A stretch of 64,000 nucleotides of DNA from Escherichia coli (GTDB taxonomy: Bacteria > Pseudomonadota > Gammaproteobacteria > Enterobacterales > Enterobacteriaceae). The notes beneath the pieces are model-generated. The model did no database searches, had not been told where the DNA came from, and saw only the letters and a list, made by a program, of their open reading frames with translations. Position numbers and translations under genes: made by a program. The DNA is taken from NCBI RefSeq assembly GCF_024223415.1, contig NZ_CP100500.1, one strand, 5' to 3'. Below, piece after piece: positions 1 through 16,518 of this stretch; the first letter of the stretch is position 1; every line of letters begins with the position of its first letter.

Positions 1-35
1 TGAAGCGTATTCACACTTCAGATCAGTGGATTCGA

Positions 36-245
36 TCAGATAGCTGTTACGTTAACAGCTGCCGGACCTTTCTGGCCGTCCTGAATTTCGAACTCAACGT
101 TCTGACCTTCAGCCAGAGTTTTGAAGCCATTACCCTGGATAGCGGAGAAGTGTACGAACACGTCTTTGCTGCCATCAGCAGGAGTAATGAAGCCAAAACC
201 TTTAGACTCGTTGAACCACTTAACCTGACCTTTAATCTTTGCCAT
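36..245 (-). CDS. cspC: cold-shock-domain protein CspC
   Basis: 69-aa [36 protein letters not shown]..., CspA-family with RNP motifs; position next to yobF as in K-12. Confidence 0.93.
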
Positions 246-257
246 TTGAAAAATTCC

Positions 258-401
258 TTAGATTGTTTTCTTCGCCCGCAGGCATAACATAGATAAAACT
301 GACACATTACTGCATGAGGCACCAATATAAGGCTCGGCAGAGAAGCGGTATTCAACGTCAACGTGTTTACTCAGGACTTCTTTACTGAAAATGCCACACA
401 T
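258..401 (-). CDS. yobF: small protein YobF (47 aa)
   Basis: Manual translation of minus strand gives [47 protein letters not shown]; below the 60-aa cutoff of the ORF track. Confidence 0.85.
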
Positions 402-1072
402 AAACAGAACTGTACCTCGTTTAACCCGAAATCTGTTATCACATACAACGTTAATTATGGCAAGCCATTTTTAAACATGTCTCGATCAGACGCACAAATC
501 TCGATACGTCTTCCACTTTTTTTGCACACTTATGCAACGGAATACGCGCCGATATATCATTGTGCTTAACCTTGCCAGTTCCGGCAGATACTTAAACTGG
601 CGTAGTTTCTAACATAGTTCAATAAGTTCAGTTGTTCCAGGCCAGTGGGAGAAGTTATTACATAGTGCGTGCAATATCACATTTTCTGCTATGCAATGAA
701 TAAAAAGTTATATCACTTTTTCTCATAAAACAGTCAGTTAACGGCTATCAATTACCCTAAAGAGAAGTCAATCCCCAAAGGGATTGTAAATTTAAAATAA
801 GAAAAATTGATGAGTGAGCAAAAAAATCAAGAGAGAAACGTTTCGCTAATAAATAATACCACGCTTAATCACAAATCCGATGTAAACATCCTAATAAATT
901 ATAATGAGGAAAATATCTTTTTCTGATATCCCGTTACGCAAATAAATAATATGATAATTATTTGAAGTCAGACCAGAGTTTTAATTTGAAGCAGTTGCAC
1001 CATGACAGTGCGTATAATCAGGATGAATTGAGTAACCCTTCAACGACGGGGTTACTCAAGATTGAGGAAGGA

Positions 1073-15124: not shown

Positions 15125-15781
15125 TTATTGCAATTGCACAAGAGTCAGTTCGCCCCCAAAGACAGCACCGGTATCAATATAATGCAGGTTGCCAATATCC
15201 ACGCGATGTCGCAACGGTGTATGACCAAACCAGAAATGATCAGCACCTGTAATTCCCTGCACTTTTTGGCGTTCACTTAATCGCGAGCGGCTCCACAAGA
15301 CCTGATGCAAATCGACGTCCTTTTGCCATTCATAAACATCATCTGGATAATCGGCATGAGCAATAACATGCTTGCCGGTGCGACTGTGTACTTCAAGAAT
15401 AAAGGGCAAATGCTGACATTTCCCCAGCGCCGTTTTCGCTTGTTTCTGTTGATTATCTGCCAGCGCAATAAACCAGTCGCCGCCATTCATCAACCATAAA
15501 GACATCTGCTGGGATGCCAGCGCATCCATCGCCATCTGTTCATGATTGCCTCTTACCGCACGAACCCAATGTTGTTCCAGTAACTGCAGACAACGTAAAC
15601 TTTGCGGCCCACGATCGATAACGTCTCCCACTGAGATAAGTAAATCTCGCCACGGATCAAAACGACAATGCCATAATTTGCGGCGCAACTGCTCAAGACA
15701 ACCGTGTATATCGCCAGAAAGCCAGATATGTCGCCATTGATGACCCGCAATTCTCTGATAAACGGGCGCAGGCTGTTTCAT
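15125..15781 (-). CDS. pphA: serine/threonine protein phosphatase 1 (PphA/PrpA)
   Basis: Metallophosphatase motifs GDxHG, GDxxDRG, GNHE. Confidence 0.92.
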   Translation of the reverse strand: MKQPAPVYQRIAGHQWRHIWLSGDIHGCLEQLRRKLWHCRFDPWRDLLISVGDVIDRGPQSLRCLQLLEQHWVRAVRGNHEQMAMDALASQQMSLWLMNGGDWFIALADNQQKQAKTALGKCQHLPFILEVHSRTGKHVIAHADYPDDVYEWQKDVDLHQVLWSRSRLSERQKVQGITGADHFWFGHTPLRHRVDIGNLHYIDTGAVFGGELTLVQLQ

Positions 15782-15915
15782 CAATATTTTCCTCCCGCGC
15801 TAAAGATCACATAATCTTAACAAGAATGTTAAAAAATGCTGGACTCAGACAGTAGAGTGTGTGTTATGGTTGACTATAAAGTCAGCGAAGGAAATGCTTC
15901 TGGCTTTTAACAGAT

Positions 15916-16018
15916 AAAAAGAGACCGAACACGATTCCTGTATTCGGTCCAGGGAAATGGCTCTTGGGAGAGAGCCGTGCGCTAAAAGTTGGCATTAATG
16001 CAGGCTTAGTTGCCTTGC
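15916..16018 (-). ncRNA. sdsR: sRNA SdsR (RyeB)
   Basis: Minus-strand sequence GCAAGGCAACUAAGCCUGCAUUAAUGCC...CCGAAUACAGGAAUCGUGUUCGGUCUCUUUUU matches my recollection of SdsR, ending in a hairpin plus U-tract. Confidence 0.8.
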
Positions 16019-16105
16019 CCTTTAAGAATAGATGACGACGCCAGGTTTTCCAGTTTGCGTGCAAAATGGTCAATAAAAAGCGCGGTGGTCATCAGCTTAA
16101 ATGTT

Positions 16106-16148
16106 AAAAACCGCCCGTTCTGGTGAAAGAACTGAGGCGGTTTTTTTA
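16106..16148. terminator. bidirectional intrinsic terminator (yebY / RyeA)
   Basis: ACCGCC...GGCGGT stem followed by T7 on plus strand and preceded by A5. Confidence 0.65.
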
Positions 16149-16176
16149 TTGGAAATCAAAAGGCTATTTTAGGTAA

Positions 16177-16518
16177 TTAACAGAGTTTTTCAGCTCGTTC
16201 TATAAACGGTGCCAGACTCATTTTTTCGCCGGGATTGTTAGGATCATCAATCTGAATCACCGAAATGGGTTGGGCTTTAGTCTTCCCACTGGCAACTTCC
16301 TTCTGTGCGATATCGTTTAAAGGATACTGCACGAGGGTACTTGGGTTGATGACATACAAAGCATTACCCGGTCGGCAAGTCAGCATCACCTCTTCGCGAT
16401 TAAACGCCCATTTGTCTTTACCCACTTCAAAACGGCTGACGGTAATCACCTGCGGTGCCGCCAGCGCCGCTGCAGAACTGGTGAGTAACAGAAACGCCAG
16501 AATACTTTTTTTCATCAT
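16177..16518 (-). CDS. yebY: periplasmic protein YebY (DUF2511)
   Basis: 113-aa ORF with signal peptide; synteny with yebZ-yobA. Confidence 0.85.

Follow-up and report, generated by a model that had tools for sequence, protein, structure and literature searches.

An intact, K-12-like SdsR/RyeA antisense small RNA pair between pphA and yebY in Escherichia coli

The window analysed here is a 64,000-nucleotide stretch of Escherichia coli DNA in which the minus-strand genes pphA and yebY are separated by 395 bp (Table 1). PGAP RefSeq records of E. coli carry no feature under this stretch, and both of its non-coding RNAs are annotated only in the curated K-12 MG1655 record, so that a track based on open reading frames shows an empty gap, as an earlier note on this DNA had remarked. 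That note had placed the small RNA SdsR (RyeB) on the minus strand at 15916-16018 and RyeA on the opposite strand, and had proposed an Rfam scan and an alignment to K-12 as checks. Scanning the whole 64-kb window at gathering thresholds returned three matches, two of which fall at the pphA-yebY locus, far above the gathering scores of both families: SdsR_RyeB (RF00111) on the minus strand at 16015-15916 (model positions 1-100 of 100, 114.4 bits against a gathering score of 38, E 1.8e-21) and SraC_RyeA (RF00101) on the plus strand at 15912-16056 (model positions 1-145 of 145, 175.1 bits against a gathering score of 37, E 2.9e-40). These families, joined in Rfam clan CL00105, are those of E. coli K-12 MG1655 sdsR (b4433) and ryeA (b4432), respectively. 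The outcome that the note had named as refuting the pair, an Rfam scan blank at this position, did not occur.

The alignment to K-12 led to the same identification, and no observation speaks against it. Positions 15780-16180 of the window match MG1655 without gaps at 398 of 401 sites (99.3%), and none of the three substitutions lies within SdsR. The curated K-12 record has ryeA at 1923066-1923337 (plus strand, 272 nt) and sdsR at 1923104-1923207 (minus strand, 104 nt), in the same arrangement as here; sdsR is identical at 104 of 104 nucleotides and ryeA at 270 of 272, and the position between pphA and yebY, the geometry, the sdsR promoter, the probable ryeA promoter and the terminators are all shared. 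Transferring the K-12 coordinates places sdsR in the intergenic region on the same strand as pphA, and entirely enclosed by the ryeA unit on the other strand, with the start of RyeA 38 nt beyond the 3' end of SdsR. The pair is thus located where the earlier note had boxed it (15900-16150), except that the box opens too late: RyeA begins 22 nt before 15900. We are dealing with an already known pair, which is the K-12 locus itself and no variant of it. Every feature by which the two families are defined in sequence is present, the hexamers of the ryeA promoter alone being probable assignments.

Of the substitutions relative to K-12, one, 15837 (T for C), falls at -41 in the ryeA promoter. The other two, 16083 (C for T) at RyeA +206 and 16098 (T for G) at RyeA +221, are in the RyeA-specific 3' part, which SdsR does not overlap; counted on the sdsR promoter, they are at -65 and -80. 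Other E. coli, ECONIH4 for instance, carry this allele unchanged, which marks it as ordinary polymorphism. Of 5426 complete E. coli genomes, all but one (5425) contain the 401-bp locus, with flanks annotated as pphA and yebY, and in 3985 of them it is at least 99% identical.

Table 1. Features of the pphA-yebY region (window positions).
Feature	Positions	Strand	Description and basis
pphA (phosphoprotein phosphatase 1)	15125-15781	-	ORF and K-12 annotation
ryeA sigma-70 promoter (probable)	15840-15870	+	Extended -10 TGtTATGGT 15862-15870; weak -35 candidate TGGACT 15840-15845
ryeA (sraC)	15878-16149	+	Antisense RNA, ~272 nt; K-12 coordinates transferred, Rfam RF00101
SdsR Rho-independent terminator	15916-15950	-	Stem 15950-15922 (11 pairs), U-run 15921-15916, CUUUUU; pattern scan, fold, compensatory pairs
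sdsR (ryeB)	15916-16019	-	SdsR sRNA, ~102-104 nt; K-12 coordinates transferred, Rfam RF00111
sdsR sigma-S promoter	16025-16052	-	-35 TGGAAA 16052-16047, 16-nt spacer, -13C 16031, -10 TATTCT 16030-16025, A/T-rich discriminator; read from sequence
Bidirectional Rho-independent terminator	about 16106-16148	both	A5-stem-loop-stem-T7; folding, RyeA 3' RACE
yebY	16177-16518	-	ORF and K-12 annotation

The third Rfam match lies elsewhere, at window positions 1-421 on the minus strand, where the cspA thermoregulator model scores 127 bits (gathering score 78) over an open reading frame for a 69-aa cold-shock protein with a CspC-like sequence (36-245, minus strand). This match aligns well over the coding part but poorly over the 5' UTR, and so is probably a paralogue that the model caught by its CDS portion, and a putative thermosensor at most.

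The sdsR promoter has the features that Frohlich 2012 (PMC3333887) associated with sigma-S selectivity (-13C, a TATTCT -10 element, a 16-nt spacer and an A/T-rich discriminator), and its -13C, -12T, -11A, -7T and the TGG of its -35 element are invariant in 79 of 79 Enterobacterales relatives. A consensus promoter scan left it uncalled; it is this conservation, together with published end mapping, that establishes it. Dependence of SdsR on sigma-S has been reported previously (Frohlich 2012, PMC3333887), including by in vitro transcription (Choi 2019, PMC6610125). Primer extension moved the SdsR +1 inwards by 1 nt from the older 5' end, to 16018, exactly the 5' end given in the earlier note; the 3' ends lie at +100 to +102 (Choi 2019, PMC6610125).

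SdsR folds into three hairpins (-35.2 kcal/mol, z -3.8). Across 30 diverse sequences, the single-stranded core AAUGCCAACUUUUAGCGCAC is invariant or nearly so, and in the same alignment the single-stranded core AATGCCAACTTTTAGCGCAC and the middle hairpin are almost invariant. The terminator hairpin, which the earlier note had also recognised, was the only element called at the locus by the consensus promoter and terminator scan, and five of its pairs show compensatory double changes among the 30 Enterobacterales sequences. Mirrored on the plus strand, it folds weakly (-11.1 kcal/mol, z -1.5) and lacks a U-run, which fits RyeA reading through it. In vitro transcription has identified the SdsR and the RyeA 3' ends alike as Rho-independent termini (Choi 2019, PMC6610125).

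RyeA has three start sites, of which the one furthest downstream gives the mature 5' end (Choi 2019, PMC6610125); from the construct coordinates in that study we placed this end at 15878. The extended -10 element in Table 1 ends 7 nt before this mapped +1; the consensus promoter scan made no call there, and the -10 and -35 hexamers are probable assignments, made by setting the sequence beside the start site published for RyeA. At the other end of RyeA, the proposal of a bidirectional terminator held up well. The hairpin at 16106-16148 is bidirectional in form, folding on the plus strand with -20.0 kcal/mol (z -5.2, with a U7 tail after 16106-16140) and on the minus strand with -19.8 kcal/mol (z -6.3, with a U5 tail). 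We identify it as the RyeA terminator because the 3' ends determined for RyeA by 3' RACE (+261 to +270, corresponding to 16138-16147; Choi 2019, PMC6610125) fall at the same place, and K-12 ryeA ends at 16149. The consensus terminator scan did not call it, on account of a bulged stem that exceeds the loop limit of the scan, and so it is folding and published end mapping that establish it. On the minus strand, the same hairpin lies 30 nt past the yebY stop (16177), making it reasonable to infer that this face probably terminates yebY as well.

To follow the locus beyond E. coli, we used a 16-mer of the SdsR core to scan genome contigs and filtered the matches by BLAST against SdsR, which removed chance 16-mer matches in unrelated phyla and left 79 Enterobacterales species for alignment. 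Mean identity to the window was 92% for the SdsR terminator segment, 97% for the middle segment, 81% for the 5' segment and 76% for the sdsR promoter; the corresponding values were 40% for the ryeA promoter, 31% for the RyeA 5' leader, 35% for the RyeA 3' part and 44% for the RyeA terminator. Conservation is strong over the body of SdsR and over the sigma-S promoter that drives it, and absent from the parts belonging only to RyeA. This profile reproduces the conclusion of Frohlich 2012 (PMC3333887), by which SdsR belongs to the core sRNAs of enterobacteria and SraC/RyeA is conserved only over the SdsR overlap, and the gap between 31-44% and 81-97% suggests, as was argued in the same study, that a regulatory role of RyeA may be lineage-restricted. 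Salmonella, whose SdsR and SraC are the subject of Frohlich 2012 and 2016, illustrates the difference: SdsR of S. enterica subsp. arizonae (locus L113) is 96% identical, and Salmonella SdsR has the same sigma-S promoter architecture and terminator as the window, whereas the RyeA-only segments of the arizonae locus are 37-52% identical, and the promoter of Salmonella SraC lies ~35 nt further upstream, with a differing sequence outside the overlap (PMC3333887). The ompD target is specific to Salmonella.

All but one of the retrieved species are represented by a single locus. Edwardsiella piscicida ACC35.1 carries two SdsR-like copies ~65 kb apart on one scaffold (L119 7345-7433 and L120 987-1088), each 86% identical to E. 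coli SdsR.

The 3' end of sdsR is also a site of phage integration. Its terminal ~30 bp, which comprise the terminator, serve as a prophage attachment site in other strains; in the window this site (15916-15946) is empty, as in K-12. In E. coli E423, a prophage (with integrase, excisionase, recET and ralR) lies right next to SdsR, and 15915/15916 is where homology to the window ends; a related flank with the same breakpoint is present in the E. albertii type strain (the loci considered for integration at this end were L002 2936-3105 and L009 10665-10835). For a 100-bp junction probe, two places were seen in about 236 of the 5425 E. coli genomes. Where a prophage occupies the site, SdsR remains intact and RyeA is left without its own promoter and 5' leader. 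The sdsR 3' end has been named as the site of Salmonella phage PhiW104, an attribution to Balbontin 2008 that we take from its citation in PMC7380047.

Partial matches among E. coli genomes led us to look for disruption of the window locus itself by mobile DNA, of which we found none: insertions occur only in other strains. One of these, E. coli FDAARGOS_944 (L003 3137-4024), has an IS1A inside the 5' part of sdsR, flanked by SdsR 8-104 and 1-27, an arrangement that would disrupt SdsR and separate pphA from the sdsR promoter. We also considered, and rejected, an IS insertion described in PMC5495878 as an event within the ryeA/sdsR locus, as that paper reports altered ryeA expression only.

With SdsR identical to that of K-12 and RyeA differing at only two positions outside the duplex, the pair in the window is expected to behave as it does in K-12. 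SdsR would be made in stationary phase and under stress from its near-consensus sigma-S promoter and would stop at an intrinsic terminator that is leaky; acting in trans and in association with Hfq, it would repress mRNAs through its core AAUGCCAACUUUUAGCGCAC, among them tolC, mutS and yhcB and, in Salmonella, ompD. RyeA would be transcribed from its sigma-70 promoter in exponential growth, converging through the whole sdsR unit, promoter included, as far as the hairpin at ~16106-16148. The two RNAs would pair perfectly over ~100 bp, and cleavage of this duplex by RNase III would lead to their mutual degradation, and convergent ryeA transcription would interfere at the sdsR promoter, reducing the transcript that reads through from sdsR into pphA.

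Each of these expectations has its source in published work. Association with Hfq and control by sigma-S were reported alongside the ompD target by Frohlich 2012 (PMC3333887). Transcription of SdsR by sigma-S RNA polymerase and of RyeA by the sigma-70 polymerase, mutual degradation of the two RNAs, interference of ryeA with the sdsR promoter, and the production of pphA mRNA mainly by read-through of the sdsR terminator are all from Choi 2019 (PMC6610125). In the same study SdsR is described as an sRNA toxin that inhibits growth via yhcB when overexpressed, and RyeA as its sRNA antitoxin, a pairing also credited to Choi 2018. The pair resembles type I toxin-antitoxin and other cis-antisense pairs, such as ldrD/rdlD and GadY/gadX, in that what one strand produces is neutralised by an antisense RNA from the other, by way of a duplex and RNase III. 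However, its "toxin" is not an mRNA for a toxic peptide but a non-coding sRNA that acts in trans on yhcB and other targets, and the literature accordingly treats SdsR/RyeA as a separate, sRNA-sRNA type of toxin-antitoxin system (PMC6610125).

How much of this depends on RyeA as an RNA is the point at which another reading deserves attention. SdsR might be the only product under selection, with RyeA a lineage-specific antisense transcript that acts mainly or only through promoter interference by convergent transcription, without a dedicated RNA function such as that of an antitoxin. Outside Escherichia, the RyeA-only segments are near background, and in some E. coli strains, as in E. albertii, prophages at the sdsR 3' end have taken the place of RyeA's promoter and 5' leader, with SdsR left intact; in addition, pphA is lowered by ryeA transcription but is unaffected by RyeA RNA supplied in trans (Choi 2019, PMC6610125). 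Against this, the SdsR/RyeA (ryeA-ryeB) duplex is the top, most abundant cluster of RNase III-cleaved dsRNA in stationary-phase E. coli (PMC7373196). The RyeA-specific DNA is also nearly invariant within E. coli (at least 99% over the 401 bp in 3985 genomes), yet this would be expected of any core DNA within one species. Work in K-12 from the Lee laboratory reportedly found that plasmid-borne RyeA, acting in trans, lowers SdsR and rescues SdsR toxicity when the chromosomal ryeA promoter is inactive. On balance, we consider a RyeA without a function of its own as an RNA to be unlikely.

A wider circuit can be imagined, in which the shared terminator and the passage of RyeA across the sdsR promoter would couple the copper-related yebY-yebZ-yobA genes to SdsR, RyeA and pphA; it can likewise be imagined, as a separate matter, that the three substitutions would shift the balance between SdsR and RyeA. 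Both are speculations to which we give very little credence.

It is highly improbable that the locus encodes a small protein. Two open reading frames are mechanically present, one of 63 codons (16073-15882, minus strand) and one of 38 codons (16010-16126, plus strand), but neither is maintained outside Escherichia, and we rejected both as coding. Among the 79 relatives, the start codon of the 63-codon frame is kept in four, and start, frame and openness together only in other E. coli; its start moreover lies upstream of the SdsR transcription start, so that SdsR could not encode it. The 38-codon frame survives in E. coli and E. albertii alone. Conservation at the locus instead tracks RNA structure, as seen in the compensatory pairs, and promoter elements, and the lack of conservation of the overlapping frames indicates that the locus is non-coding. 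That the resemblance to SdsR/RyeA reflects a chance match or a decayed remnant can be dismissed outright, being refuted by the Rfam scan and the K-12 alignment: both models are matched over their full length at the E values given above, SdsR is identical to that of K-12, and the sdsR promoter, the probable ryeA promoter and the terminators are intact.

Cumulatively, we put the probability at about 97% that the stretch between pphA and yebY is the known SdsR/RyeA antisense sRNA pair, intact and K-12-like, its identity, boundaries, structures, promoter elements and conservation being drawn from the analysis presented here and its mechanism from the literature. What appears as a 395-bp gap contains a pair of characterised regulatory RNAs, along with the promoter from which pphA is mainly transcribed and an already known attachment site of prophages. 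Recognising the pair here adds no new biology; its value is that of correct annotation only, which keeps the gap from passing as unexplained non-coding DNA.
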